Source of the DNA: Dictyostelium discoideum
Taxonomy: Eukaryota
NCBI GenBank assembly: GCA_000004695.1
Contig: CM000154.2
Coordinates: 4,192,001 to 4,256,000, forward strand
Reading direction: 5' to 3'
Length of the DNA stretch: 64,000 bases
The translations under genes were made by a program, and so were the position numbers. This document shows, in pieces, positions 1 to 64,000 of the stretch (the stretch's first letter is position 1; each line of letters starts with the position of its first letter). The notes under the pieces are model-generated. The model ran no database searches, had not been told where the DNA came from, and was given only the letters and a program-made list of their open reading frames with translations.

Positions 1-3000
1 TATTGGAAGATTCAATTTATTATGCAGAGTTGAATAGAATTAAATCAGAGGAATTGAATAGTTTATGTTCATCTCATTTAAGAGAAAAATTCTTAAGAGA
101 ACCATTTAGTAATATCATTTTAGAGTCAATCAATACACAAATCATTGAGAAATTTGCTGATCTTTTAAATTCAAATATTGAAAATGCAAAAGAGGTCTTG
201 GAGAAAACAAAGATTCTAAAAGGCACTTTACAATCTATATTGGTAGCACCAGAGAATCCAAATGGTAAAATATTAAAACTTATAAACTTTTATCATATGA
301 CTCTAATCAATCATTTGAAAGAGAGTACAATGGCCACCCTATTAAGAGATGAAGCATTCCTTTCAACATTTGGTTTAAGACTTCATTTATTGGATTCTGA
401 TAAAATTAGTGGTGTTGATGCTAGTCAACGTGGTGTTAATCTATCGAATAAGACAGAGGTTGATTTCAGTCAATTAAGATTCATCTATGATAGTAGTAAT
501 AATAGTTATGGTGTATTATTTAAAAAAATTGAACAATTAATTAATTCATCAGATAAACCAGAATTTGAAAAATTAACTGAAACTCTCAATACCCCAGATT
601 GTCAAGGTTTGTTTAGAGCAAGTTTATTCATTATACTTTATCAATATTATTTGGATGGTTTAGATTGTTCAGCATTTAAATACCTATTCGAATCAAAGGA
701 ACAAGATTCAACTCGTAAATTCTTTGATCTTCAAAATTTCACCGAATATTATTTACCATTCATTTATCCAGATCAAAAATTGAATAAAAATATTGGTGTT
801 CATAAACTTTTGATGAGACAAGAGAATAAAGAAAGGGAAGATATCACTGCCGCTCAAATCACTATCAATTCAATAGCAATATCAATTGGTTCAAATTCAA
901 ATACTTTTCTTTACAATTTAACAAGACATATTCAAACCGTGGCCGGTCAATATTTCCCGGCTTGTGATGTTGGTAATATCTTTAGAGATTGTGCAATGAT
1001 CTATTTAGATGGTCAAGATGATCATACCGTAACCATGGGTTATGATGTTTTGTATAAATATATTGTATCATGTTGTTCTTGGTCTGCTTTTACATTCACA
1101 GTATCGGTGCAACCTAGATACACAGAGTACCTTTTAAAACCACAAATTCATTTCGTTTCGAAATTGGATAAAAAAGATCACGTATCTTTAACAAATTACC
1201 TTTGGAATAGAGCATTAACTTCAATCAATGAAATCATTAGAAATCCAGAACTAAGTTCATCTCTAATTGAACCTTCTCAATATATTTCAGAGTTTCTTTA
1301 TCAAATTTGGTTAGATGGTCATACATTAAATAATAGTCAACAAACTCAACATTTCCGTTCACACTTTGCAAATACAACCCAAGTTACCAACTATGAGAAA
1401 TATCTTTGTAATGTTTTAACTAAAATTAAAAAAGAGAATGAAAGTAGAAAATCTCATCTAATGAGAATATTTGCTCAAAGAACTATTGTATCATCAAAGA
1501 ATAAAGAAATACAAATGAATATCAATTCAATTAGAAGTGATTTTGTTCGTTCCTATGAAAGACCTTATTTTACATTTGAAAAGATCAATCAATTTTGTTC
1601 AAGTTCAAATGGTAGTAGTAAAAATTTCGAAGTCCTAACATTTATGTCAAATCAAATTCAAAAGATATGTTTATCAAAACATTTCACTCCATTAGTTAAT
1701 TTCATTGTATTATTCCATCAATTCTTAAAATTCCGTTTACAAGAGAATCAATTCAATTTCAATTTCAATCAATGTGTTCAAATTCTATTGGATAAACAAT
1801 ATGAAACTGAAGAATCAATTAAACCATTAAGATTGGCTTGGACTCATTTCACAAATGCTTGGAAATCAGTTATCAAAGAAATGAATATCATTGAAGGTGG
1901 TTGTGCACAAAAACCAGAATATGAAAAAGTTGCATTCCCAATCCATGATGAAACTCCAATGTCTGTAATATTATTCGATAGTGATTCTAATGGTTCCGGT
2001 GTAATTTTGAATCTAATCAATGGTTGGGTATCGCATACTCAATCGCCTTGTCTAAATCTTAGAAATGATGTACCAATGTCACCACTTTTCAAAACGATTG
2101 CAGAAGGTTTCATTCCAAAAGGTGTGACCTATGATATCTCTGATTTGCCAGAAGGTGAGAATTATCTATTGTTAGGTTCAGATTTCGAACCAAATGATTA
2201 TCATCAATTCATCTATAGACTATTCTCTCAATATCAAACATTTGATAAGGAAACAATGTCACCAGATTTCCTATCGATTCAAAATCGTGTCATCAATAGA
2301 TTCTTTGCTGGTAAAGGCGTTGCAGGCATTTTAGAGAATTATTCAAAACGTTTTCCTTTTCAAAAAGTAATCTCTGAACAAGATAGTGTAGTTAAAAAGA
2401 AATTAGCATCATTGCTATTGGATGATGAAATTCAATCTCTGTCGAATCTAGTTAGAAATCTTTACTCATTAATTCAAAAATTACCAGAGATTTATTTCAA
2501 AGATATTGGACACTCTTATTTGAAAATTCATTTCGAAAATACTTTGAGTGCACGTCAAAATTATTTAGATGATTTCTCTCAAGAACTTAGTACTTTGGTT
2601 TCAAATATTATAAACCTAACAAATGAACAACAATCGATTGATGTCAATCAATCAATTTTCCATTTCCGAAATTCAATCACTACATTTGTTCCACTAGATT
2701 TAGCAAAACAGTTATCAATCAATATGGTTGGTACAATTTCTATTATGTTGATCAATTCTTCACTGAAACAAAAAAAATTATATAGAAACTTTTGTCCAGA
2801 ACCAAAGATTATCGATGGAAAATATATAGAGTTTTTCGATAGATTCAAATCTAATATCATTGAAAAAGCTAAAAATGAAGCTGATAATCTTAACTTCCTT
2901 AGAAATCTTTGTGAATACATTAGAGAGGTTCATAGTAAATTGGTTTCAAATGATGTTTTAAAAGAAATTTCCGTCTCAACTAGTGAATCAATAACATTGG

Positions 3001-17814: not shown

Positions 17815-18916
17815 TTATTCATCAACATTATCAAGGAAGAAATAATTACCAGCAGCTTTTTGTTCATTATCTTTGATTGAATTTAATTTGTTAATTCTTG
17901 GACGGAAATTGGATGGATCACGACGGAAAGTGATTTCGAGAGATTTAAGGAAAGAGTTCATACCAGTGAGGAGAGATTGTGGAGTATTAGCAACACAAGA
18001 GACACCTGGAATACCATCATAAACGATGACACGATCAGCTAAATAAGTGGCCATAATGAAATCGTGCTCTACGATGAAACCAGATTTACCAGCGTGAAGA
18101 ATGAATCTCTTGATGACTTTAGAGACGATAATACGTTGTTCAGAATCCAAATAAGCGGATGGTTCATCAATGAGATAGATATCAGCAGGTTGACCTAAAC
18201 ATAAAACGATGGCAACACGTTGTAACTCACCACCAGATAAATTGAGTACTTGATTGTCGATGATGTTTTCAATGTTTAATGGTTTAACGACATCGGATTG
18301 GAATTGTGGATGAAGGAAAGTGTTGCAAATACGTTTATTAATCAATTCTCTAACGGAACCTGGGAATTTTGGATCGATTTTTTGTGGTTTGTAACTGACA
18401 TTCAACTCTGGAACTTGAGCATCAGTATCGGATGGCATATGACCAGCCAACATTCTGATAAAGGTGGTCTTACCGGTACCGTTTTGACCCAACATAACGA
18501 TGATTTCAGAATCTGTGAATTGACCTGCTTTAATTTCCAATTTGAAGGTACCCATTGTTTTGGTCATATTTGGATATTTGTAGTTACAATGTTTCTTGAT
18601 CTCTTCTTCATTCTCTGCTGTCTCTGAGAATTTAAAGGTTAATGCATCCTTACGGAATCTCATATTCTCTGTGTGAATATAACCACTAAGGAAAATATTA
18701 ATACCTTCTCTAACAGAGAATGGTAATGTTACAACACCATAAGCACCTGGTGCTCCATAAAGACAACAAATAAAATCTGATAAGTAATCTAAAACACTAA
18801 GATCATGTTCAACTACAATAATATAATTTTGTGATTGAATTAAACCTCTAATAACTTGTGCTGCCTTTAATCTTTGTTTAACATCAAGATAACTTGATGG
18901 TTCATCAAACATATAA
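17815..18916 (-). CDS. abcE1: abcE1 (ABCE1 / RNase L inhibitor), C-terminal exon (from ...[16 protein letters not shown] to the end). It covers the twin ABC nucleotide-binding domains.
   Basis: Walker A (GQNGTGKTT), the LSGGELQR signature, and Walker B ([12 protein letters not shown]). Acceptor TATAG at 18917-18921 on the minus strand. Confidence 0.9.
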
Positions 18917-18985
18917 CTATAATAAAAAAAAAATATATAATATTATATATATATATATATATATAAATATATTAATATTTGATAT

Positions 18986-19051
18986 TGTTGTTGTTGTTGT
19001 TGTTGTTGTTGTGTTGTTGTTGTTGTTGTGTTGTTGTTGTTGTTGTTGTTG
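18986..19051. repeat. (GTT)n microsatellite, (AAC)n on the gene strand, inside the abcE1 intron.
   Basis: Tandem GTT units with two GTG interruptions. Confidence 0.9.
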
Positions 19052-19083
19052 ATTTAAATTTTAATTTCTTTAAAAAAACTTAC

Positions 19084-19793
19084 ACATCGGCTTTTTGAAT
19101 TGCAACAACAGCAATTGCAAAACGTTGTAATTCACCACCTGAAAGTACTGGTACAGTTTTATGAAGTGCTTCTTTTAAGTCAAGACAATCGATCATTTCT
19201 TGTTTATTATCTTTTTCAGATTTAGCATCGAGGATACTTGAGACTACACCAGTGACAGCCTTTGAAAGATTATCAACGTATTGTGGTTTGATGAGTGCTT
19301 TTAAATCTTCACCGAGAATTCTAGTGAAATAGGATTGAAGTTCATTACCACGGAAGAAAGAAATGATTTCATCCCAAGTTGGTGGATTATCGTAGAGACC
19401 TAAATTTGGTTTTAATTTACCAGCTAAAACCTTTAAGGCAGTGGATTTACCAATACCATTGGTACCTACTAAACCCAATACTTGACCTGGACGTGGTGTT
19501 GGTAATCTATGAAGTTTGAAACTGTTTGGACCATAACGATGTGTGGTTTCTTTGGTTAAATTCTTTGGTAAATTAATGATTTGAATTGCTTCGAATGGAC
19601 ATTTCTTTACACAAATACCACAACCATTACAAAGTTCTTCTGAAATGTATGACATCTTTGATGTTGGTTTAACTTCAATACAAAGTTTACCCATCTTTAC
19701 GACTGGGCAATACTTTTTACATTCTTGACTACATTTCTTTGGTTTGCATCTATCTGCATTTACAATTGCTATTCTAATTGCATCATCTGCCAT
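19084..19793 (-). CDS. abcE1: abcE1 N-terminal exon. It covers the Fe-S (4Fe-4S ferredoxin-like) domain and the first nucleotide-binding domain ([31 protein letters not shown]...).
   Basis: ATG at 19793. The donor GTAAGT lies at 19083-19078 on the minus strand, with the exon ending at ...GAT GT. The splice restores ...[15 protein letters not shown], matching human ABCE1 (...[16 protein letters not shown]). The total is 603 aa. Confidence 0.9.
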
Positions 19794-20336: not shown

Positions 20337-22089
20337 TTAATCATCTCTATATTTTATATATTTTGAAATGAAATGAGTATCTAAATTTTTAATATAACGT
20401 GCATATCTATCACAATAGATTACATTTAAATTTTTTGGAATTGTATTAATATCAAAAATTGGTAAAAAACCATAAATATGAATATAATTTAAAGAAGATG
20501 GTAAACAATTGATTGGTGATAAATCAATTATTCTATTACTATAATTAATAATTGTTAAAGATTTTAAATTTGATGGTAAAATTGATGGACCTATTGCATT
20601 TGGATTATTAAAATTATAACATATTGTTAAATATTCTAATGAATTTGGAAAAGAAACTAAAGTTAATGGATGATTATAACCACCTAAATCTAATTTTTTA
20701 AGAGTACTCGGTAGTGATGATTTGTTTATTATTTGATTAAATCCACTACCAAATTTTAAAGTTTTTAATTTTTTATATATTTCATTAAATTCACTACTAC
20801 CACCACCATCACCACCACCACTATTAGGTATATTAATTAATTGATTATAATACCAACCAAATTTTAAAGATTTTAAATTATTTAATTGATTTTTAAATAT
20901 CAAATTATTTAATAAAGGTTGATTAAAATCTTGTTCAAATTTTAATTTTAAAAGATTACTAGGTAAACTATTTTCTTGAATAGCTTGATTGAAATTTACA
21001 CCAAATGATAATTTAGTTAATGACATTGGAAGTGAATTTTCATTTATAATTTGATTAAAATTATTACCAAATCTAATTGTTGATACATTCTCTGGTATAT
21101 CACCATCATTTAAAATATTATTAAATTCATTTTCAAATATTAATGTTGTAGTTGATCTTGGTATATTTAATAAATTATTATTAGAATTAATATTAAATTT
21201 TAAAGTTGTCACTGATTTTGGAATTGATTTTGGTTCAATTTTACCAAAATAATTTTTATTTAATTTTAAAGTTATTAAAGATATTGGTAATTTATGTTTA
21301 ATTAAAATTGGTTGTTGAAATGATGTGCAATATTCTAAATCTAAAGATTTAATTGATTTAGGTAACCATGTTGATTCTATTGTTTGTTTAAAATCTCTAC
21401 CTGTGAATGTTAAACTTGTAATATTCTCATGAAGTGTGAATTCAGTGAATGGTGAACTAAAAATAACATTATTAAATTCTAATTGTGTCAACGATTCTGG
21501 TAAACAATTACAATCGAGTTCAATTGAAAATCCAGTTCTAAATTTAATAGATTTTAAACCATTTAAAAATGTACCTTGTTTAATTTGTAATTTATCATTT
21601 CTATTATCCATTAAATTAATTGATGTTAAATAACTTTTAAATTTATAATTTTTATATTCTTCAATACCTTTAAAATTAATTTCAAATTTATGTAAATTAT
21701 ATAATCTCGAATGAAAAATTATTTCATTTCTTATAACTAAATTATTCCAAACTTTTTTAAATAAATTATAATTTTTATAATTAATTAATTCTTTATTATT
21801 ACTATTATTTTTATTATTATTATTACTATTTTCATTTATAATATGTTTTTTATTATTTATAATATATTTTTTATTATTTTCAATAATTATGAATATTGAA
21901 CAATTAAATTTTATTTTTAAAATATCATTACTATTATTATTATTATCATTATTATTATTATTAAAATAAATTTTATTTATAAAAGTTTCAATATTGTTAT
22001 TATTATTATTTTTATTTAATGATTTTAAATTATTTTTTATTAATTTAAATTGGAATTCATTTAACCCTAAATTATTTTCATAATCATTT
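20337..22089 (-). CDS. FNIP-repeat protein, exon 2 (584 codons). Repeats are of the LP.SLT.L.FG..FNQ type.
   Basis: The track ORF at 20337..21611 is only the part after the first ATG. The same frame is stop-free for a further 159 codons upstream to 22089 and has no start codon there. Typical FNIP-family text (FKKVWNNLVIRNEIIFHSRLYNL). Confidence 0.65.
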
Positions 22090-22739: not shown

Positions 22740-23347
22740 TTAGTTTGGGCAATTATTTCTAACTTTAACATGGCTTGAAATATCACAAGATTCTAGTGAT
22801 TGTTTAAATCCATCAAAAATTGTAATATTTTTAACAGTTTTTGGAATTGAACCAAATAATAAAGGTTGTTTTATATCATATAAAAATAATCTTTCAACAC
22901 CTTCTGGAAGAATACCTGGAGTTAAAGCATGATCAAAACCATCACCTAAAATTACATTCTTTACAGTTGATGGTATTGAACCAACAACTAATGGTTTTTT
23001 AATATTATAAAGATGTAAAAATTCAACACCTTCTGATATTAAACCCGGTGTTAAAACTTGATTAAAACTTTCATTAAATACAATTCTTTTAACAGTTGGT
23101 GGAATTGAACCAACAACTAATGGTTTCTTTATATCATAAATATGTAATCCTTCAACAGTTTCTGGTAATGTATTTGGTTCAATTGATTGGTCAAATCCAT
23201 CTAAAAGCATAACTGCAAATGTTTTTGAATTGAATTTGAATTTTGATATATCAGTACTTTTATTTCCAAATGCAATTCTTGTAAATTCATTTTCTAATGC
23301 ACAATCTGAATCACTTTCAATTTGTAAATAAAATTTAGAGTTTTTAT
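22740..23347 (-). CDS. C-terminal exon of the B-box zinc-finger / FNIP-like-repeat protein. It holds degenerate FNIP-type repeats (IPPTVKRIVFNESFNQVLTPGLISEGVEFLHLYNIKKPL...).
   Basis: The frame is open upstream of the track ORF at 22740..23210 with no start codon. The acceptor AAAG ends at 23348. It joins in phase with the upstream exon. Confidence 0.55.
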
Positions 23348-23438
23348 CTTTTTTTTTTTTTGGAAAAAAAAAAAATAAAATTAAATTAGTTTTTTTTTTT
23401 TTTTTATTTATTTTTTATTTCTATTACAAACTACTTAC

Positions 23439-25137
<1,699 letters not shown>

Positions 25138-25897: not shown

Positions 25898-27163
25898 TTA
25901 ATTTTTCATATTTGGGAAATAATTTTGACTTTTCATATAACCAATTAATTGTTCAGGTATTTCACAAAGTGTTTCAGCAGCTAATTGTTCAGGATCATTT
26001 TCATATTTTTTGAATGGTACGAATTGAACAATGTCACGAGTAGCAATAACACCATTTTTATCAGATAATTGATTTTCATCACCATCTAATTTTTTCATAA
26101 GTTCAAAAGAAGCAATACCAACACCAACGATAACGATTGATAATGGAGCTTTGGAGGATGCTTTTACAATTTCTTCAATGGTTTCTTCCATATCTGTGAT
26201 TTCACCATCTGTAAGTATTAATAGAATTGTATATTTTTGATTTTTAGAATCAACACCTTTAATTGACTTTTTATGAGCATGTTTAATAATCTCTTGAAAG
26301 TTAGTTGGATAACTTAATTTAATAGTTGGTATAACTTTATTATAGGTTGATAAAACTTCTTCAATACCGCGAGCTTCAGCTTTTGGACCGAATTGGAAAC
26401 AGTGGCTTGTTACACCACCGAATCTTTCAGCACCGAAACCCAATAATTCAATTTTACCATCGGAATCATATGGGGCTAAAACATTACCCACTGCCAAGAT
26501 AGATCTTGCATACTCACTTTCATGAGTTGGTGTATTGTAATGTAAAGATGTACGATCACTTGGCATACCATTTGAAGCTGTACAATCAATTGCAATCATT
26601 AAATTAATTTCACAACCACCCGATAAATAATCAATAAAAGTTGGTTGTGCAATTAATCTTGCATCTGTGAATACAATTTTACCACTATTTTTATAACTTG
26701 ATTTTGATAGCTTCTTTGGATTGATTAATGTGAATTCCCTAACTTGTCCTTTTAATATCTCATCAGTTGTAGTTTTAAATGAACCAATGAAATCATTATC
26801 ACCAATTGTATCATAATCCCAAAATTCAAATGTTAATTCTCTAAACATATCTCCACCATTAAACTCTTCCAATTTAAATATGATTGGATTATAAATTGGA
26901 TTAATATTACTCTTTATAACTGGACTTTGATAAACTAATAAATTACCATTAGCTGATGATTTAAAAATTTTAAAAAATGGATCACTTGAAAATAAATCCT
27001 TTTTATCTAATTTACTACCTTGAAGTTTTAAAATTATATTTTGACCAGTTTCTTGAATTTCTTCTGCAATAATTTCAATTGTACCTGTTTGTTTACCATT
27101 ACATTTAATTTCACCAATTACTTTTTTACCTGGTTTTGAGATTATATTACCTAATGTTATTGA
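25898..27163 (-). CDS. Copine, exon 3. It covers the end of C2A, the C2B domain and the vWA-like domain.
   Basis: Contains KLDKKDLFSSDPFF (C2B) and the vWA/copine core (INLMIAIDCTASNGMP...LGFGAE...ILLILTDGEITD). The frame is stop-free from the acceptor TTTTAG ending at 27164 to TAA at 25898. Confidence 0.8.
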   Translation of the reverse strand, partial: SITLGNIISKPGKKVIGEIKCNGKQTGTIEIIAEEIQETGQNIILKLQGSKLDKKDLFSSDPFFKIFKSSANGNLLVYQSPVIKSNINPIYNPIIFKLEEFNGGDMFRELTFEFWDYDTIGDNDFIGSFKTTTDEILKGQVREFTLINPKKLSKSSYKNSGKIVFTDARLIAQPTFIDYLSGGCEINLMIAIDCTASNGMPSDRTSLHYNTPTHESEYARSILAVGNVLAPYDSDGKIELLGFGAERFGGVTSHCFQFGPKAEARGIEEVLSTYNKVIPTIKLSYPTNFQEIIKHAHKKSIKGVDSKNQKYTILLILTDGEITDMEETIEEIVKASSKAPLSIVIVGVGIASFELMKKLDGDENQLSDKNGVIATRDIVQFVPFKKYENDPEQLAAETLCEIPEQLIGYMKSQNYFPNMKN

Positions 27164-53576: not shown

Positions 53577-55814
53577 ATGAAAATAAATAATTTAATTTAC
53601 AATGAAGGTAATTCATCCATTAATGTAAATTTAAATAGTTTTAAAAAATTATTACAACCACCAAAAGAAAATATAAATTTAGTAGCAATGGATGATAAAA
53701 CTATTGAAATACTTGGATCGGATGATGATATTAGAAGAGTATTAAATTCATTGAAAATTCAAGTTGATAAACATGGTAATTCATTAATTGAATCTGATAA
53801 ATCAATTGGAAAAACAACATTAATTAAAAACTATAGTCAATTATTTAATGACCAGTATGACCTAATTACAATGATTCATAATGAATCAATGGATAAAGAT
53901 TTATCAACATTCGCAATGTATATTGAAAATTATGAAAATGAAAATAATAATAATAATATTCAACTATTTGATAAATTAACAAATATAAATAATTTACCAA
54001 TACTTGTAAATGAAAAACTTTATAAATATTTGAATGAAACAAATAATAATTGGTTAATTTTATTTGATAATGCAAATTTAAAAAATTTAAATGAATTTCA
54101 AAAATCAGTACCTTTAATTTTTAATAGTAATAACAATTGTAAACATCATATATTAATTACAACTAAAGAATCTCAATTAAACAATATTGAAGATTTTAGT
54201 GATTTAGTATCATTTACATTAGAACCATTTTATGAAAGAACTAAATCAACAATTTTTATTAATAATCAAACAAATGAAAATAATTTATTTTTTTATAATA
54301 AAAATGAAGTTATAAAAAAGGGGATTATTCCAGAAGATGTTTCACATTTAATTTTAGGATTAGATTATAATTTACCAATACCAGATCAATTTATAATACC
54401 AAGATCAGTGGTTGAGATAACATTTGGGTTTAATTATAATATATCATTCTCTGAAACTATTTTACCAAATTCAATTACAAAATTAGTATTAGGTCATGGA
54501 TTTAATCAAATTATATATCCGGGTGATTTACCAAACAGTATTAAACATTTAGAATTGGGTCATTGTTTTAATCAAATTTTACAAGTTGGTTCAATACCTT
54601 CATCAACAACATTTTTAAAATTTTCACATTGTTATAATCAAAATTTAAAACCTGGTGTGATACCATCAAAAGTTAGAGTATTAGAATTTGGTCATTGTTT
54701 TGATAAAGTGATCGGAAAGAATACATTACCATATGGTTTATTAAGTTTAAAATTTGGTAACTTTTTCAATCAACCAATTGAAATTGATGAAATTCCAAAA
54801 ACTGTTAAATCAATTCACTTTGGGTACTACTTTAATCAACCAATACCTGAAAATGTAATACCATTCGGTGTTTATGATTTAACATTTGGGTGGTCATTTA
54901 ATCAAGTGTTAACAGAAGGTAGTATACCAAACTCAATTTGTAATTTAATTTTCAACGGAATGTTTAATCAAATGGTATCAAACACTAACACTATCCCACT
55001 ATCAGTACAACATTTGCAAGTTGGTAAGAATTTCAATCAGCCAATTAACAATCTATCATCATCAATCACACATTTAACTTGGAATAGTGAATTTAAATTA
55101 AAAGAAGACCAATTACCAATGACAATTACTCATTTAACATTTGGTGATAATTTTAATAAATTGGTTAAAGGCCATTTACCAAATTCAATAACTAGAATTG
55201 ATTTTGGTAACTTTTTCAATCACCCAATTCCAAAGAGTTACTTTCCACAATCTTTGACTCAATTAAACTTAGGTTACAAATTTAATAAACAAATTCAACC
55301 ATTTGTTTTACCACCATCTCTAACTCATTTAACTTTATCAAATGATTATAATCAAAACCTATTACCTGGAACATTACCACAATCTTTAAAATATTTATCA
55401 ATGGGTCAATCATTTAATAAACCTTTAGTTTTAAAACAAGGTTTGTTTTCAACAATTGTTAAATTTTTAAATAATCAAAATAATAATAATAATAATCAAA
55501 ATAATAATAATATTAATAATAGTAATAATAATATTATTATTAATCAAAATCAAATAATTAATGATAATTTTATTTCATTACTTCCAAATAATCTTGAAAT
55601 AATTTCATTAGGTTGGAAATATAATCAACCAATTTTAAAAGGTATTCCTGAAACTGTTAAAGAAATTAGTTTTGGTCCTTTCTTTTCACATCCAATTCAA
55701 AAAGATACTTTACCACCATCTGTTAAAAAAATAAATGTTTTTGGTGGTAAAAAAAATACTCAAATATTCGATAATATTTGTAAATCTATTAAAATTAATT
55801 ATCCTGATGAATAA
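53577..55814 (+). CDS. FNIP-repeat protein (745 aa). Its N-terminal region has NB-ARC/STAND-like motif spacing (GKTTL ... WLILFDNA ... HHILITTKES), followed by more than 15 FNIP repeats and a poly-N linker.
   Basis: ATG ORF. The FNIP repeats are of the LP.SI..L.FG..FNQPI type. The N-terminal motif block is described in findings. Confidence 0.7.
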   Translation: MKINNLIYNEGNSSINVNLNSFKKLLQPPKENINLVAMDDKTIEILGSDDDIRRVLNSLKIQVDKHGNSLIESDKSIGKTTLIKNYSQLFNDQYDLITMIHNESMDKDLSTFAMYIENYENENNNNNIQLFDKLTNINNLPILVNEKLYKYLNETNNNWLILFDNANLKNLNEFQKSVPLIFNSNNNCKHHILITTKESQLNNIEDFSDLVSFTLEPFYERTKSTIFINNQTNENNLFFYNKNEVIKKGIIPEDVSHLILGLDYNLPIPDQFIIPRSVVEITFGFNYNISFSETILPNSITKLVLGHGFNQIIYPGDLPNSIKHLELGHCFNQILQVGSIPSSTTFLKFSHCYNQNLKPGVIPSKVRVLEFGHCFDKVIGKNTLPYGLLSLKFGNFFNQPIEIDEIPKTVKSIHFGYYFNQPIPENVIPFGVYDLTFGWSFNQVLTEGSIPNSICNLIFNGMFNQMVSNTNTIPLSVQHLQVGKNFNQPINNLSSSITHLTWNSEFKLKEDQLPMTITHLTFGDNFNKLVKGHLPNSITRIDFGNFFNHPIPKSYFPQSLTQLNLGYKFNKQIQPFVLPPSLTHLTLSNDYNQNLLPGTLPQSLKYLSMGQSFNKPLVLKQGLFSTIVKFLNNQNNNNNNQNNNNINNSNNNIIINQNQIINDNFISLLPNNLEIISLGWKYNQPILKGIPETVKEISFGPFFSHPIQKDTLPPSVKKINVFGGKKNTQIFDNICKSIKINYPDE

Positions 55815-56316
55815 AAAAAAAATAAAAAAATAAAAAAATAAAAAAAAATAAATTTTTGTAAATAGCCTCTAATTTTTTTTTTTAGGTCTCACCAATGGAT
55901 ACGCATATATCATTGTTTATTATTTAATTTAGAAATTATAATAAATGATTTCAAAAAAAAAAAAAAAAAAAAAATTAAAAATAAAAAAAAAAAAACATTG
56001 GGTGATTGCCCAGGGGATTTATAAAAAGGATTCTGAAAAAAAAAAAAAAAAAAAAAAGTTTTTATACAATGAATGAGTGCATTTAAATGGAATTTCAATA
56101 CAATCTTTGTTTTTTTTTTTTTTTGGTATGGAAATATGAAAAAAATAAATAATATAATAAAACAATTAAATTTTGAAAACACGTAAAATAAATGGTTTTT
56201 TTTTTTTTTTTTTTTTTTTTTGATTTGTAACAGAACTTCTATTGTTTATTTTAAAAGTTTAGTCGTTCACCAAAAAAAATTTTTTTTTTTGGGTTGCCTT
56301 ATCTATTCGTGAAAAA

Positions 56317-56378
56317 TTATTGTGCATATTTTCTTGTCCACTCACGGGCATTAGATTCGAATCTATTTTTGTCTGTTT
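56317..56378 (-). CDS. UBE2D-type ubiquitin-conjugating enzyme E2, exon 5 (-TDKNRFESNAREWTRKYAQ, stop).
   Basis: Acceptor AAAAACAG ending at 56379. Stop TAA at 56319-56317. Compare human UBE2D, [20 protein letters not shown]. Confidence 0.75.
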
Positions 56379-56430
56379 CTGTTTTTTTTTAAAAGAGAAT
56401 GGTGTTAGAGAGAGGAGATATTCTGTTTTA

Positions 56431-56700
<270 letters not shown>

Positions 56701-56868
56701 TTAATGAAAACTTTTTTTTTTTTTTTTTTTTTTTGCTGTTATTATTATTATTATTTTTATACGATTCTGGTGCTATTTATTATATTCTTTGTGTAGACCA
56801 CTATTTGGAAGGTTATGATTATATTTATGTATATTTTTGAGGTATTATTGTTTTATTTTATGTTGCTA

Positions 56869-56976
<108 letters not shown>

Positions 56977-57031
56977 CTATGTAATCCAATTTTTATGTTA
57001 ATAATAGAATTAAAAAAAAAAAAAGATGTTA

Positions 57032-57208
<177 letters not shown>

Positions 57209-57399
57209 CTATAAAAGAGAAAAGGGAAAGGGGAGAAAGGGAGAGGGAGGAGGAGAAAAAAAAAAAAAAAAAAATTAATATCCAAATTTTATGTTGATTA
57301 AATAAAAGTCCATAGAACTAATTGAAAGAAAAAAAAAAAAAAAAAAAAAATTCTTTTTTTTTTTTTTTTATATATATAAACCTATTCTATGATTCTTAC

Positions 57400-57423
57400 T
57401 TTATTAATTCTCTTTAAAGCCAT
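57400..57423 (-). CDS. E2 exon 1 (MALKRINK).
   Basis: ATG at 57423. Donor GTAAGA at 57399. UBE2D begins MALKRI. The total is 147 aa, exactly UBE2D length. Possibly ubcB, but this cannot be confirmed from sequence alone. Confidence 0.7.
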
Positions 57424-58882: not shown

Positions 58883-59233
58883 ATGGAACCAATTCCATCA
58901 TTAATTGAATTTGATGAGTTATATAAAGAGAATTTATTTTTAAAAAAACAAATAAATCAATATAAAGTTGAAAATGAACAATTAAAATATGATAAAAATC
59001 AAATGAAAAAAAGTTTAGAAAAAGCAAGATTAATAATAGTCGAACAAAGAAAAAAAATTATTTCACCACCACCAATTGTAGATTCATTTGGAAATGTTCA
59101 AATTTCAACTCCTTCTTCAACTATTTCCTCTCCTTCAATTGGTAAACAACTTCAATCACAATCACAACTACAACAACAAATAAATAAACAATATCAAGAT
59201 TCAACAATAAAAAATATTTCAAACGAAACTTTA

Positions 59234-59267
<34 letters not shown>

Positions 59268-60034
59268 TTAATAACTCAAATGATTTTGAAATTGAAATTA
59301 ATTTAGGTTCAAGTAAGAAATCATCACCAATGATTAAAAGTTTTTCATTACCATCAATTAATATACCATTTTTTTCATTTCAAAATAATAATAATAACAA
59401 TAATATTAATAAACTAAAACAATTTGATGAAGAAGAACAAATTGAAATTGAATATCCTATTGAATCAATATCGACAACACCATGTTCATTTAATAGTGAA
59501 TGTTCAACACCTAATGGAAGTGTATCAATACCATTTTGTTTAAGTAAATCCCTACCTAGTATAGCTACAAATTTAAACATCAACAACAATAATAATAACA
59601 ATAATACAAATAATACAAATAATAATAATGGAATACTATTGGAAACAATTAAAAATATGTTAAAAAAGAATAAAGATAAAACAAAAGAGCAAGAGCTATT
59701 AATTCGTCAATTAAAGCAACAGAATACAATTTTATTAGACTTAAATAATTCATTCAAAGAAAGAACTGAAATTTTAGAAAAAAAAGTCATTTTAAATAAA
59801 CAACAATTAAATAATAATAATATTAAAAATGATAATAATAATAATAACCAAAATAACAATATTAATAATTTTAATAGATCACCATCAAAATTATTAAATA
59901 ATATTAGATTATCACCTTTAGTATGTTCTTCAAATATTCCTAATAATAATACTAATAATAACAAAAATAATAATAATAATAATAAAAATAAGCAACAACA
60001 AAATGATGTTCAGTTAGAAGTAATTGTATTATAA
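58883..60034 (+). CDS. Asn/Gln-rich protein (383 aa) with N-terminal and central coiled-coil segments (LKKQINQYKVENEQLKYDKNQMKKSLEKARLIIVEQRKKI; QELLIRQLKQQNTILLDLNNSFKERTEILEKKV).
   Basis: ATG ORF with heptad-like charged and hydrophobic periodicity and poly-N tracts. No specific family recognised. Confidence 0.55.
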
Positions 60035-60150: not shown

Positions 60151-60481
60151 TTATGATTTTAACCTCTTTCTACCTCCACTAGAAGAAGAGGAAGAGGAGG
60201 AGGAAGAAGAAGATAATGGTGAGGAAGAAGGAGAATTGTTACCAGGGTCATCAACATTTTCACTCTTATTATTATTATTATTCTTTTTGTTATTATTTAA
60301 AATTGTAGGTGATGAGGAAGAGGATGGGGTTGAAGGTGATTCTTCATAGTCAAATAATAATCTTTTGCCAACCATTTTCTTTTCAGTATTATTATTATTA
60401 TTGCTATTATTATTGCTATTATTATTGTTATTATTATTGTTATTATTGTTATTATTGTTATTATTGTCGTTGCTATTATTA

Positions 60482-60540
<59 letters not shown>

Positions 60541-61064
60541 ACTTGAAGGAGTTGTTGGTGGTGGAGGTACCATTTCATCATTTTTCTTTTTATTTAAACA
60601 TTGATTGATTTGAAATAATTCTTTACTTGGACTCTTTGCGACAATATAAGTGTATGAACTAGAGATTGGAGTATGTTGTTTCATAGGTGATATTGTAACC
60701 ATACTATTTACAGAGAAACTACTATTATAATTAACACCTTTTTGTGGTGATAATGGTATTGATGAAGAGAATTTATTTGGTGTATTATTATTGCTATTAT
60801 ATGGATTATTATTTTGATTTTTGGTTGGTGTGTGAAATAATGGGTTCCATTTCTTAGGTGAATTTTGATTTAGTAAAGGTGGTGGTAAATTTTGTAGTGG
60901 TTGTTGATATTGATGTTGTTGCTGTTGTTGATATTTACTAAATACTTCATGAATGTAAGGATCCATTTTTGTTAAAAATATTTTATTATAAAATAAAATT
61001 ATATCACCCTTTACTGGATTATTATTATTATTATTATTTTCATTATTATTATTATTATTATTAA

Positions 61065-61131
<67 letters not shown>

Positions 61132-61884
61132 TTCATCATTACCTATATAAACTTCTTTATAAACTTTAGCAGAGATACAAGATTTATCAATGATTGCTTT
61201 AAAGGTAATATTTTTAGAGTTAACTTTACATATTGCATAGATTGAACAAATTAAAAGTACATCTATTTCTCTATTTTTAAATAATAATGTTTCATCGATT
61301 AAGATCTTTATCATGACTTGATAGATTTGAACCACATAATCTGATGATAATCCCATTGCATGAATTAACTTTCTACATTTTGCAATGATCAATGTTGATA
61401 CTTTTTTAATGAAATTTTGAATAAATGGATTCTTTTTAGTTGGTGTATTTGGTATATTTGTATTAATTAATTGTTGATTCCTGAAAGGATTATTATTTTG
61501 ATTTTTAGTTGGTGTTGAAAATACTTGAGTTGGACGTAAATGTGTTGTTATGGCAGCACCAACACCATTACTATTAAAAATGTTTTGAAAATCATGACTT
61601 TTAATTGTTGAAAAAACGGTTGAATTATTTGACCAAACATATTTCTCTAAAATTTTCTCTTCAATTTGACTAAAATGTTGAGCCAACAGTTTAGGGAGAT
61701 CAGCATCAACTTTTAATACTAAATCAATTAATCTTAGATAAGAGAATGGATGAAGTTTGAAAACATTTATAAAATGAGGGAAATATAATCCTTCCATCTT
61801 ATAAACATATGCTATAATTTCAAAGCTATTTGACAATAATGATTTATGAAAATCTTCATGATTTAATAATACATTAATATTTGA
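60151..61884 (-). CDS. rblA: rblA (retinoblastoma-like), exon 2. It covers the end of pocket A, the spacer, pocket B (DVLLICSIYAICKVNSKNITFKAIIDK...DIILFYNKIFLTKMDPYI) and the C-terminal tail.
   Basis: Pocket B matches Rb (LDQIMMCSMYGICKV...FKIIVTAYKDL...IIVFYNSVFMQRLK). Acceptor CAAAAG ending at 61885. The frame is stop-free to 60151. The track M is a TTG. Confidence 0.75.
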
Positions 61885-61977
61885 CTTTTGTATAAATATA
61901 TATATATATAAAATAGAAATAGAAATATATTAATATTAATAATTTTTTTATTTTTATTTTTTTTAAATTTTACTTAC

Positions 61978-62476
61978 ACTTGTATTTTGTTCAAATTTAA
62001 TTAATTTTTCAAGTAAACAATAATATAATTGTATTGCCATATTCTTTCTTCTTTGTTTTACTTCTTGTTGTTGTTGTTGTTGTTGTTGATGATCGTCAAT
62101 ACCACCAATAGAGAATAAACTATCAGTATTATTTGTTAATGATGAAACTCTTTCAATCATTTTATCAACTTCTGATGTTTGTTGTGGTTGATCCGCAGAT
62201 TTTAAAATATTAATTAAATTTAAAGAGGGATTTGGATCTCTATAGTTTTGAATTTCAACTTTTAACCAAGATTCTAATGTTAGAGTTAAAGATATTGGTG
62301 TTTGTGGTATAACACTACCTAAATTACCGGCACTTAAGGATTTTGATGGTGTACCGTATATATTCTTTCTTAAATTACCACCACCACCACCACCACTACT
62401 ACTACTACTACCATATCTTGATGGTGTCGTTGGTGTTGAAGGTGGCAATAATGATGAATATTGATAATTTAAATGA

Positions 62477-62520
<44 letters not shown>

Positions 62521-63104
62521 ATAATTATTATTATGATTATTGTTATTATTATTATTATTTTGGTTATTATTATTATTATTTAAAACATATATATCATGAT
62601 CAAATGAATAAAATAAACGTTCATCTATGTCACCATTTGCATAATAATAAAGTTCATATGATTTGTTTAAAGAATTATAGTTATCTTTAATTATGCTAGA
62701 ATTATTAAAGATTGATTTAATACCATCACTATTATTATTATTGTTATTATTATTGTTATTATTATTGTTATTATTATCAAATAATTTTAAAATGGAATTA
62801 TTAATTAATAAATTAGAATAAGTTGAAAATATATTTTGATTAACATTTGAAAGATCGTCAAGATTACATGGAATTGATTTAGCTAAATATAATAGTATAT
62901 CTCCAGTTGCAGTATCAATGATTTGAACGCCTTGTGGTATCTTTTTCAATTCACTTATCGATGTATTAACATAAATGAAATTTATAATACATAATAGTAA
63001 ATGTAAAGATTGAACGAAATCTGGACTGTCCTTGGTAAACAATTTATTCTTACAGAAAAGGAAAATTAACCAGCCAATTGATAATAAATAATCTTCATTT
63101 GTTC

Positions 63105-63158
<54 letters not shown>

Positions 63159-64000
63159 TGTTATTATTATAGTTATGTTGTTGTGTTGTTTTTAATATAT
63201 AATTTTCAGTTGGATGAAATAGAGTGAAAAAGATTTGTTCATATTTTCTATAAAGATTATTTAATGTATTAAAAGATTGCTCCAATTGTCTACCTTGTTC
63301 TTCGAATGCATTACCTAATCTAAGGTTACTAATGAACGATCTAAGGGTATCAAAGAATTGTGATAATTTAATCTCACCTTCAAAGTGTTTCAAAAGTTGT
63401 GATAAAAACACTGAATTTTGTAAGAATTGACTATCACCACCACTTTCATTAATGCATGATCTTATTGATACTAATAATTCATTATTATTACTACTATTTT
63501 TATTAATACTATTATTATTTTCATTTAATAATGTATCTTCTTCTTCTTCTTCTTCTGTATCAGTGGTGGTTTCTTCTTCTTCTTCATTACTATCATTATT
63601 TTTATTTTTGCTATTATTAGTTTTTCTTATCTTTCTTCCTTTTATTTTACTATTATTATCTGGTTGAAAAGATGAAGAAGAGGGTTGATTTAAATTATAT
63701 AATAAAGAACTAAATTTCTTATTACCACATATAAATAATGAGCATGCTACAATTTGTTTTTGAAATTGTTCAGATGTATCAACCGATACTAATTGCATAT
63801 TCTCTAATAAACACCATGCCAACTTGATTGTATCTTGATCTACATTCAATGCTGATGATGTCCTATCTAATTTTGATTTTAATTCCTCTAATTGAATTTG
63901 GGTATATCTACCTTTTAATTCTGCTGCTGCCACTAACTCATCCAAAAGATTAATTTTATTATTTATAATATCATTATTATTATTTTCATTATTTTCATTA
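61978..64000 (-). CDS. rblA: rblA exon 1 (RbN and the pocket A cyclin folds), 5'-partial. The frame is still open at the window edge.
   Basis: The donor GTAAGT at 61977-61972 overlaps the track ORF's stop. The N-terminal DTIKLAWCLLENM...ACSLFICG aligns with Rb (RERAWLTWEKV...GICIFIAA). The track M at 63945 is a TTG, and the frame continues upstream (NENNENNNNDIINNKINLL) to nt 64000. Confidence 0.7.

Follow-up and report, generated by a model that had tools for sequence, protein, structure and literature searches.

The 64,000-nucleotide window of Dictyostelium discoideum AX4 DNA analyzed here contains an intact single-exon open reading frame (ORF) that runs from ATG to stop and encodes a 745-amino-acid protein with a nucleotide-binding-like N-terminal block and a long array of FNIP repeats (Table 1). 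An identical 745-aa single-exon gene is annotated in D. discoideum assembly GCA_054883475.1, and a neighboring ORF (58883..60031) corresponds exactly to DDB_G0290549 of D. discoideum AX4. The first 250 codons are coding, with a chance probability for the open frame of ∼3e-13 and with 27 and 62 stops interrupting the two alternative frames over the same interval. The encoded 250 residues are strongly biased in composition and include 46 Asn. An A-run lies immediately upstream of the ATG, in DNA of 15% GC. We considered and rejected a missed upstream exon, based on the length of this run in such AT-rich DNA and on the recovery of the same single exon in the independent annotation.

Table 1. Features of the FNIP-repeat gene, with coordinates in the 64,000-nucleotide window
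Feature	Coordinates	Strand	Basis and remarks
Whole gene	53577..55814	+	Single-exon ORF, 745 aa plus stop; A-run before ATG
N-terminal leader, residues 1-40	53577..53696	+	No recognizable domain; no TM/signal-like segment (max KD19 = 0.87)
NB-ARC-type nucleotide-binding (NB) subdomain with first ARC1 helix, residues ∼41-232	53697..54272	+	NCBIfam FxSxx_TPR, custom NB-ARC HMMs, hhalign, MAFFT
Noncanonical Walker A/P-loop, S73-D-K-S-I-G78-K79-T80-T81	53793..53819	+	G78, K79, T80 conserved; S73, K75, S76 replace family-invariant glycines
P-loop helix and RNBS-A-like strand, LIKNYSQLFNDQYDLITMIHNE vs LAiEYAHRFaadYDlvWWinAE	53820..53885	+	Profile and hhalign alignments
Asn-rich insertion relative to NB-ARC family, about 13 extra residues within ∼118-141	53928..53999	+	Alignments
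Walker B block, W159-LILFD164-N-A-N; family WLLvFDNAe	54051..54077	+	Profile and MAFFT alignments
RNBS-B/sensor-1 block, H190-HILITT-K197; family GHVLITSR	54144..54167	+	Alignments; Lys in place of Arg
Strand beta5 and first ARC1 helix remnant, VSFTLEPFYERTKSTIFI vs VeVDVLaRaESValLr	54207..54266	+	NB-ARC similarity stops here
Short Asn-rich linker, residues 233-252, where ARC1 core (GLPL) and ARC2/WHD (MHD) would sit	54273..54332	+	Alignments and repeat mapping
FNIP/FGxxFN leucine-rich-type repeat array 1, about 17 units of ∼22 aa, residues ∼253-630	54333..55466	+	Pfam FNIP, repeat mapping, Crov588 match
Asn/Gln-rich low-complexity spacer, residues 631-664	55467..55568	+	Composition
FNIP repeat array 2, 2-3 units, residues 665-724	55569..55748	+	Pfam FNIP, repeat mapping
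C-terminal tail (about 20 aa) and stop codon	55749..55814	+	ORF translation

The repeats, which the preliminary description had correctly placed after the N-terminal motifs, follow a 22-aa period with the consensus FGxxFNQ...IP/LP and total about 20 units. The Pfam FNIP model (PF05725) matched 16 stretches with E = 4.7e-108 (353.6 bits against a cut-off of 21), and the array matched the crystallized FNIP/FGxxFN leucine-rich repeat (LRR) protein Crov588 with E = 2.6e-142. FNIP/FGxxFN repeats are an LRR subclass by crystal structure, and both Dictyostelium and giant viruses possess large, variable FNIP gene families (PMC9525666). Based on these matches, we assign the repeats to the structural class of Crov588, and the coarse layout of the protein reads as an NB domain followed by LRR-type repeats.

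Evidence for the NB domain came from profile searches and alignments. Among 18,950 NCBIfam models, the best and sole meaningful match was the NB-ARC/TPR STAND family FxSxx_TPR (E = 2.4e-4 to 1.2e-4), which aligned residues 76 to 203 with model positions 35 to 142; the E-value (1e-4) is library-wide, and the score of ∼20 bits lies far under the full-length family cut-off of 300. With the Walker A motif removed, FxSxx_TPR was still the only NCBIfam family matched, at E = 0.036 for residues 95 to 235 and E = 0.014 for residues 140 to 235. We also built a reference NB-ARC profile from 120 real PF00931 proteins, confirmed as NB-ARC by its PDB matches to AfsR, NRC1-4, Roq1, Apaf-1, and ZAR1. Against this profile, which was picked after the NCBIfam match was known and consists mostly of actinobacterial sequences, the protein scored 14 to 15 bits, as high as none of 3,000 composition-matched shuffles. 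Residues 41 to 110 (10.2 bits) and residues 95 to 235 (6.4 bits) each scored above all 3,000 shuffles as well.

Trimming the reference to its core raised the score to 24.9 bits (E ∼6e-10 for one comparison) in a single colinear stretch from Walker A to RNBS-B, compared with at most 1.6 bits in 69 ORFs of similar composition and less than that for the reversed query. The second-best ORF of the window (7.2 bits against the NB-ARC profile) proved to be an artifact in which the poly-Q run of a B-box exon aligned with the Ala-rich flank of the profile, and it disappeared with the trimmed version. Alignment with the NB-ARC reference by hhalign (P = 2.2e-5) recovered five motif blocks in colinear order, and MAFFT gave the same register, with 22 identical and 14 similar residues among the 54 family-conserved columns that are occupied in the query. 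Judged from these sequence comparisons, residues ∼41 to 232 are homologous to the NB subdomain of NB-ARC STAND ATPases, specifically to the NB-ARC/TPR clade with a “WLLxFDNA” Walker B.

Other searches were less informative. The Pfam NB-ARC model (PF00931), a search that the preliminary description had proposed, did not match the protein even at E ≤ 10, and the only Pfam signals were sub-threshold hits to AAA_14 (E = 0.012 to 0.6; 10 to 16 bits against a cut-off of 27) and AAA_22 (E = 0.21; 12 bits against a cut-off of 27). A match to ClpC (E = 0.01) was confined to the region around GKT. The protein thus has no above-threshold match to the classical AAA+ profiles (AAA_14, AAA_22, Clp/Hsp100), and it has no lid domain. 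AlphaFold2 run on the single sequence gave no usable model (pLDDT 35). The confident, MSA-guided model was structurally closest to the plant NLRs ZAR1, NRC2, Sr35, and Roq1 together with Apaf-1, Dark, and CED-4, a result that rests on the NB-ARC alignment and is hence circular.

From the letters alone, the preliminary description had read a P-loop-like GKTT, a Walker B motif, and an RNBS-B-like stretch, in an order and at a spacing that mirror NB-ARC domains. All three are present in that order, at K79, D164, and T195-T196-K197, and the colinear NB match bears out the spacing (24.9 bits with the trimmed profile, 0/3,000 shuffles, two aligners in agreement). The Walker B stretch reads N157-N-W159-L-I-L-F-D164-N-A-N-L168, with D164 lying 85 aa from K79, and six of the columns with at least 95% conservation are identical or similar in the query. 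In the RNBS-B stretch, K189-H-H-I-L-I-T195-T196-K197-E-S-Q-L201, the segment I192-L-I-T195-T196-K197 aligns with V-L-I-T-S-R, and P179 upstream matches the preceding P of the clade. Retained residues therefore include the phosphate-binding Lys-Thr pair (K79, T80), the Walker B Asp (D164), and a basic sensor-1 residue (K197; Arg in the family). The canonical Walker A GxxxxGK[ST] is absent. Its leading glycine had already been reported missing (S73), and the two central invariant glycines are also replaced (K75, S76); all 63 reference sequences used for column conservation have Gly at each of the three positions, the family form being GMGGvGKT.

Similarity to NB-ARC ends within ARC1. The first ARC1 helix (residues ∼216 to 230) is the only part of this subdomain that aligns, and all nine conserved columns of the GLPL core (the “GDLPLAxAQA” region) are gapped in the query. 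With only about 20 to 25 residues between the end of NB similarity (∼230) and the start of the FNIP units (∼253), an ARC2/winged-helix domain (WHD) would not fit, and this domain with its MHD motif is absent from the protein as a whole, the tail after the repeats being ∼20 aa long. No N-terminal effector or adaptor domain (such as CC, TIR, CARD, or PYD) was found either: only ∼40 residues precede the NB domain, and they match no Pfam or NCBIfam domain. Lacking the lid domains on which such switches depend, the protein falls short of a complete NLR and appears to be a relic or a minimal variant of NLR-like type.

We searched for relatives of the N-terminal block in several collections. A word-indexed search of 5.8 billion proteins, a collection that lacks this protein itself, returned no homologues of the N-terminal 250 to 260 aa or of residues 41 to 240 at E ≤ 10. 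None were found in an exhaustive search of 1.84 billion representatives, which likewise lacks the protein, or in viral or metagenome contigs. As evidence on paralogues and orthologues these negatives are weak, as the protein is absent from the databases though called in an NCBI assembly. Because no N-terminal homologue was found, selection on the domain as an NTPase has no support from conservation. The preliminary description had also suggested looking for the motif block in other FNIP proteins, where it did not recur: the two other FNIP genes of the window consist of repeats alone or carry an upstream exon with a B-box zinc finger, and one viral and one metagenomic FNIP locus, a sample too small to generalize from, lack an NB-type N terminus. 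A literature search by gene ID returned nothing on this gene. We found no published FNIP protein with a STAND-type N terminus, and for NB-ARC/NLR plus FNIP in amoebae the search returned only plant NLR surveys with FNIP as an incidental Pfam match.

We consider it probable that the gene encodes a truncated, likely catalytically weakened NB module on an FNIP scaffold, acting as an accessory nucleotide-binding or oligomerization head and not as a working NLR switch; the functional part of this reading is deduced from the missing parts. A fragment of a STAND gene may have fused to an FNIP array, one of the many that shuffle in Dictyostelium, giving a soluble, lineage-restricted chimeric protein in which the NB subdomain is joined via a ∼20-aa linker directly to about 20 FNIP repeats. 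The FNIP solenoid could provide a partner-binding surface, and the NB module would at most bind nucleotide or self-associate. In the canonical STAND cycle, ADP is clamped between NB, ARC1, and WHD, and its exchange releases oligomerization; the query presumably cannot run this cycle because the clamp is missing and the three P-loop glycines are lost. Of the NLR-like switch-plus-repeat design initially proposed, the NB subdomain followed by LRR-class repeats stands, but the putative switch is structurally incomplete because the ARC1 GLPL core, ARC2/WHD, and an effector domain are missing and the P-loop glycines are gone.

A more active role is conceivable, with the protein working as a minimal receptor of the NLR-like kind: its FNIP array would sense a microbial, viral, or allorecognition-related ligand, and the NB domain would bind and hydrolyze ATP and drive oligomerization and signaling without ARC lids or an effector, an FNIP N-terminal cap or a partner perhaps replacing the lid. 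The size and variability of FNIP families in Dictyostelium and giant viruses are as expected for recognition modules (PMC9525666). Also in keeping with such a receptor are the NLR-like order of NB domain and LRR-class repeats, the intact, coding-like ORF, and the retention of K79, T80, and D164 with a basic K197 at sensor-1. To our knowledge, however, ARC1/ARC2-WHD always hold the nucleotide and mediate the switch in solved STAND proteins (Apaf-1, ZAR1, NLRC4), and here the ARC1 core and ARC2/WHD are absent, as are an effector domain and three invariant P-loop glycines. Immune receptor families are, moreover, usually expanded, whereas this gene is a single copy without detectable family, and we regard a functional receptor as unlikely.

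Two further readings question the NB-ARC assignment itself. The N-terminal domain might be a generic or differently related P-loop NTPase, such as an AAA+-like or ABC-like fragment, that resembles NB-ARC through the common ASCE P-loop fold. We think this quite improbable, given that the region without Walker A picks only the NB-ARC/TPR family among the NCBIfam models, that the query matches the “W-L-L-x-F-D-N-A” and “h-L-I-T-[ST]-[RK]” blocks specific to the clade in sequence and in spacing and has the P (P179) that precedes, and that the trimmed profile reaches 24.9 bits in one continuous alignment against 10 to 16 bits for generic AAA models. The preliminary description had allowed that the domain is degenerate or the match fortuitous. 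A chance resemblance, arising in an orphan stretch that is rich in Asn, Ile, and Lys and lacks a P-loop fold, would fit the biased composition (46 Asn in 250 residues), the failure to find N-terminal homologues, the sub-threshold Pfam matches, and the single-sequence pLDDT of 35, but shuffles never reached the real score for the whole block or either half, similar-composition ORFs stayed at or below 1.6 bits with the reversed sequence lower still, two independent aligners placed five motif blocks colinearly with correct spacing, and the NCBIfam E-value of 1e-4 holds library-wide. We therefore give a fortuitous match very little credence.

The truncated NB module on an FNIP scaffold represents a further, previously undescribed instance of the NB-plus-LRR combination, built in a social amoeba from a STAND-derived NB domain and LRR-class FNIP repeats. 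Putative K79-dependent nucleotide binding offers a testable biochemical handle on one of several hundred uncharacterized Dictyostelium FNIP proteins. If the module is active, an NB domain could work without ARC lids; if it is inactive, the gene would cleanly exemplify how a rapidly shuffling family of repeat proteins captures a domain fragment that then decays. A bolder and rather unlikely proposal is an independent origin in Dictyostelium of an NLR-like intracellular receptor, put together from a STAND NB domain and LRRs of the FNIP type and working without ARC/WHD lids, with an FNIP cap or a partner possibly closing the nucleotide site. If true, the NB-plus-LRR design would have a third origin, in amoebozoans, beside those of plants and animals, and the huge FNIP families of social amoebae and giant viruses would gain a first functional clue. 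With a single gene and no relatives detected, the practical weight of the finding is limited for now.

The closest sequence relatives of residues ∼41 to 232 are the NB-ARC/TPR STAND ATPases, namely, the bacterial FxSxx-COOH system TPR proteins (NF040586) and AfsR/SARP-type regulators, which share with the query the order and spacing of the pre-P-loop helix, GKT, the YD..hh strand, WLLxFDNA, P...hLITs[RK], and the first ARC1 helix. These ATPases have a complete ARC1 (GLPL), a winged-helix/ARC2 domain, TPRs, and usually an N-terminal effector or DNA-binding domain, whereas the query has one ARC1 helix, no ARC2, FNIP in place of TPR repeats, and a P-loop stripped of its glycines. [quoted passage not shown] Like the query, plant NLRs (ZAR1, NRC2, Sr35, Roq1) place LRR-class repeats after an NB-ARC-type NB domain. 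Unlike the query, they and the apoptosome proteins Apaf-1, Dark, and CED-4 have a full NB-ARC with ARC1/ARC2, MHD, a canonical GxxxxGKT, and an N-terminal CC, TIR, or CARD, and their repeats belong to the canonical LRR or WD40 types and not to FGxxFN. Residues ∼253 to 724 are typical of FNIP/FGxxFN proteins (PF05725), a group with hundreds of members in Dictyostelium and crystal structures for Crov588 and Crov539. Truncated or atypical plant NLRs (“N,” “NL,” and “TN” types) keep part of the NLR modules and are often regarded as adaptors, regulators, or decaying copies. They have usually lost the whole LRR or N-terminal domain and kept NB-ARC intact, whereas the query is cut inside NB-ARC, between the NB subdomain and the ARC lids. 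In published surveys, every NACHT domain found outside animals was accompanied by ANK, TPR, or WD40 repeats, from which a separate origin of NB-plus-LRR receptors in animals and in plants was concluded (PMC3879445).

The window is strongly AT-rich (GC about 0.14 to 0.31), and an exact match to DDB_G0290549 identifies its source as D. discoideum AX4. A newer NCBI assembly (GCA_054883475.1) has an identical gene (one exon, 745 aa) at the corresponding position. The first 250 codons are genuine coding sequence, based on the chance probability of the open frame in local composition (about 3e-13), the 27 and 62 stops in the other two forward frames, and a GC1 > GC2 > GC3 ordering that is the same in the repeat part. 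Lacking any hydrophobic segment (maximum Kyte-Doolittle 19-mer, 0.87), the protein is likely to be soluble and intracellular.

Coordinates of the gene, its repeat arrays, and other genes in the window
Feature	Position	Strand	Description
FNIP gene with N-terminal block	53577..55814	+	ATG to stop, 745 aa; A-run just before ATG
FNIP array 1	residues about 253-630		about 17 units, 22-residue period
Asn/Gln-rich low-complexity spacer	55467..55568 (residues 631-664)	+	GC 0.07; splits FNIP array between unit ~17 and last 2-3
FNIP array 2	after residue 664		2-3 further units
FNIP gene	20337..21611	-	repeats alone; Pfam FNIP E = 1e-57; about 30 kb upstream
Second FNIP gene	22740..25137	-	B-box zinc-finger ORF 23431..25137 (567 aa), then FNIP ORF 22740..23210; about 30 kb upstream
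DDB_G0290549	58883..60031		neighboring ORF
Ubiquitin-conjugating enzyme (UQ_con)	~56300..57420	-	147 aa, intron-split, just downstream on opposite strand; HPN...C active-site region in ORF 56428..56691
Retinoblastoma homologue	60151..63945	-	two large ORFs with A and B pocket domains and DUF3452; 1312-aa assembly-called gene running past window end
ABCE1/RNase L inhibitor-type gene	17815..19793	-	Fer4_RLI and two ABC_tran ORFs
Copine gene	25898..26872	-	C2 and Copine

The preliminary description proposed an NLR-like protein in which three NB-ARC-like motifs precede FNIP repeats. All three motifs were recovered: a Walker A-like S73-DKSI-G78-K79-T80-T81 (residues 73-81), a Walker B-like W159-LILF-D164-NAN (159-167), and an RNBS-B-like H190-HILITT-K197 (190-197). 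The repeats are FNIP, as claimed (Pfam PF05725, E = 4.7e-108, 16 matched stretches), and the region matches the crystallized FNIP/FGxxFN proteins Crov588 (E = 2.6e-142) and Crov539 (E = 4.9e-28), whose structures showed that this class is a subtype of leucine-rich repeat (PMC9525666). As a FNIP family member the repeat part is ordinary; its Asn/Gln-rich spacer may serve as a flexible hinge or may be an insertion from recent repeat expansion.

Single-sequence standard scans of the N-terminal block gave weak, yet consistent, matches. The proposed Pfam search for NB-ARC (PF00931) found no match to that family; the sole Pfam matches were AAA_14 (E = 0.012 to 0.6) and AAA_22 (E = 0.21), with ClpC/ClpB among PDB sequences around the GKT (E = 0.01) and mad8 in PADLOC (E = 0.007). 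We consider a generic non-STAND P-loop domain highly unlikely in light of NCBIfam (18,950 models), where the top match was NF040586, the FxSxx-COOH system TPR protein (E = 2.4e-4 to 1.2e-4). This is an NB-ARC/TPR STAND family, and residues 76-203 align with its model positions 35-142. When Walker A was left out, residues 95-235 (E = 0.036) and 140-235 (E = 0.014) matched that NCBIfam family alone.

An NB-ARC/TPR-style consensus was used as a query solely to fetch real sequences, yielding 120 proteins, nearly all annotated with PF00931. The resulting profile, dominated by these proteins, is a genuine NB-ARC profile, as it recovers AfsR, NRC1-4, Roq1, Apaf-1, and ZAR1 from the PDB. Against the HMM of the 120 proteins, the N-terminus scored 14 to 15 bits, equivalent for one comparison to E about 1e-6; the top score among 2000 to 3000 composition-matched shuffles was 1.8 to 10.3 bits, and none attained the real score. 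Separate segments also outscored all 3000 shuffles (residues 41-110, 10.2 bits; 95-235, 6.4 bits; 140-235, 7.0 bits). Trimming the profile to the 195-position NB-ARC core raised the score to 24.9 bits (E = 6e-10), with residues 77-204 placed on model positions 40-144 in one unbroken, colinear alignment from Walker A through RNBS-B. None of the 69 control ORFs, taken from the window and from two fetched loci, exceeded 1.6 bits, and the reversed query scored still lower. With these controls, we regard resemblance by chance as very improbable. Tracts of low complexity in Dictyostelium can imitate weak profile matches: the B-box exon, with more than 80 near-uninterrupted glutamines at residues ~283-375, gave a 7-bit, high-bias match to the Ala-rich flank of the profile, which we rejected as a poly-Q artifact.

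Alignment with hhalign gave P = 2.2e-5 (probability 76%) and, under relaxed settings, placed five blocks colinearly: ILGSDDDIRRVLNSL against FTGRdxLLxxLRxxL, SIGKTTLIKNYSQLFNDQYDLITMIHNE against GVGKTqLAiEYAHRFaxdYDlvWWixAE, WLILFDNAN against WLLvFDNAE, VP...HHILITTKE against LPGGxGHVLITSRe, and ERTKSTIF against aRaESvaLL. In an independent MAFFT alignment, G78-K79, W159...D164-N165-A166, P179, and T195-T196-K197 fall on the matching family columns. The query fills 54 of the 65 family columns with ≥85% conservation, and 22 of these 54 residues are identical and 14 similar. Based on the library scans, the HMM scores against shuffles and controls, and both alignments, we take residues ~41-232 to be a homologue of the NB-ARC STAND ATPase NB subdomain, closest to the NB-ARC/TPR clade.

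The similarity extends no further than strand beta5 and the opening helix of ARC1 (residues ~210-230). All nine conserved columns of the ARC1 GLPL core ('GDLPLAxAQA') fall in a query gap, ~20 to 25 residues lead to the first FNIP unit, and there is no space after the repeats; thus, the rest of ARC1 and the entire ARC2/winged-helix domain (WHD) with its MHD-type motif are absent. An effector domain is also absent, given that the stretch ahead of the NB domain is about 40 residues long and yielded no domain match. Within the NB subdomain, K79, T80, and D164 are retained. The leading Walker A glycine, already noted as missing, is S73, and K75 and S76 likewise replace glycines; all three positions are invariantly Gly (100%) across the reference sequences (GMGGvGKT). 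At sensor-1, Lys takes the place of Arg, and about 13 extra Asn-rich residues, an insertion of a kind typical of Dictyostelium proteins, precede Walker B. Because it falls below the curated threshold and lacks a canonical Walker A, ARC1, and ARC2, we would describe the protein as carrying an NB-ARC-derived NB subdomain rather than file it as an NB-ARC/STAND family member.

The NLR-like architecture therefore stands in part: an NB-ARC-type NB subdomain is fused directly to a FNIP solenoid of the LRR class, but the lid and effector domains are missing. The canonical STAND cycle requires ADP clamped by the NB, ARC1, and WHD domains, as in Apaf-1, ZAR1, and NLRC4 structures, and this clamp is missing here. 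The retained catalytic residues and fused solenoid would suit a functional minimal NLR-like receptor, which we consider unlikely without the clamp; an amoebozoan NLR-like receptor that evolved independently and works without a lid is, in our judgment, distinctly unlikely. We favor, as the probable explanation, a STAND gene fragment captured by an FNIP array, whose NB part would now be a truncated, probably weakened nucleotide-binding or oligomerization head and not a working NLR switch. The solenoid would provide the binding surface, and nucleotide binding or self-association may persist in the head.

Looked for elsewhere, as had been suggested, the motif block did not recur in either of the other two FNIP genes of the window, and it was absent from a giant-virus FNIP locus and from a metagenomic one. 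The B-box and FNIP ORFs of the second gene appear to be two exons, their join being inferred. Homologue searches with the N-terminal block came up empty in every collection. The 745-aa product itself is missing from a 15-billion-protein collection and both homology libraries, with no Pfam record at the locus, whereas its neighbor DDB_G0290549 is present; these negatives are therefore weak, and not reliable evidence of orphan status, since the gene is called in the public assembly. The neighbors (ubiquitin-conjugating enzyme, DDB_G0290549, retinoblastoma homologue, ABCE1, and copine) are unrelated housekeeping genes without functional implication, as expected in a eukaryote.

Amoebozoan STAND proteins include an NB-ARC-TPR protein in Acanthamoeba (PMC4053784) and a TEP1-type protein in D. 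discoideum (bioRxiv 10.64898/2026.09.21.753143). In the literature, we found no protein combining a STAND-type NB domain with FNIP repeats; plant co-mentions of NB-ARC and FNIP proved to be incidental Pfam matches in NLR surveys. The fusion appears to be a truncated version of a known architecture, previously unreported in the literature found. Surveys have recorded NACHT domains outside animals, including those of D. purpureum, solely with ANK, TPR, or WD40 repeats (PMC3879445). Complete NB-ARC STAND proteins share the NB subdomain with this protein, but the ARC1 core and ARC2/WHD are theirs alone.
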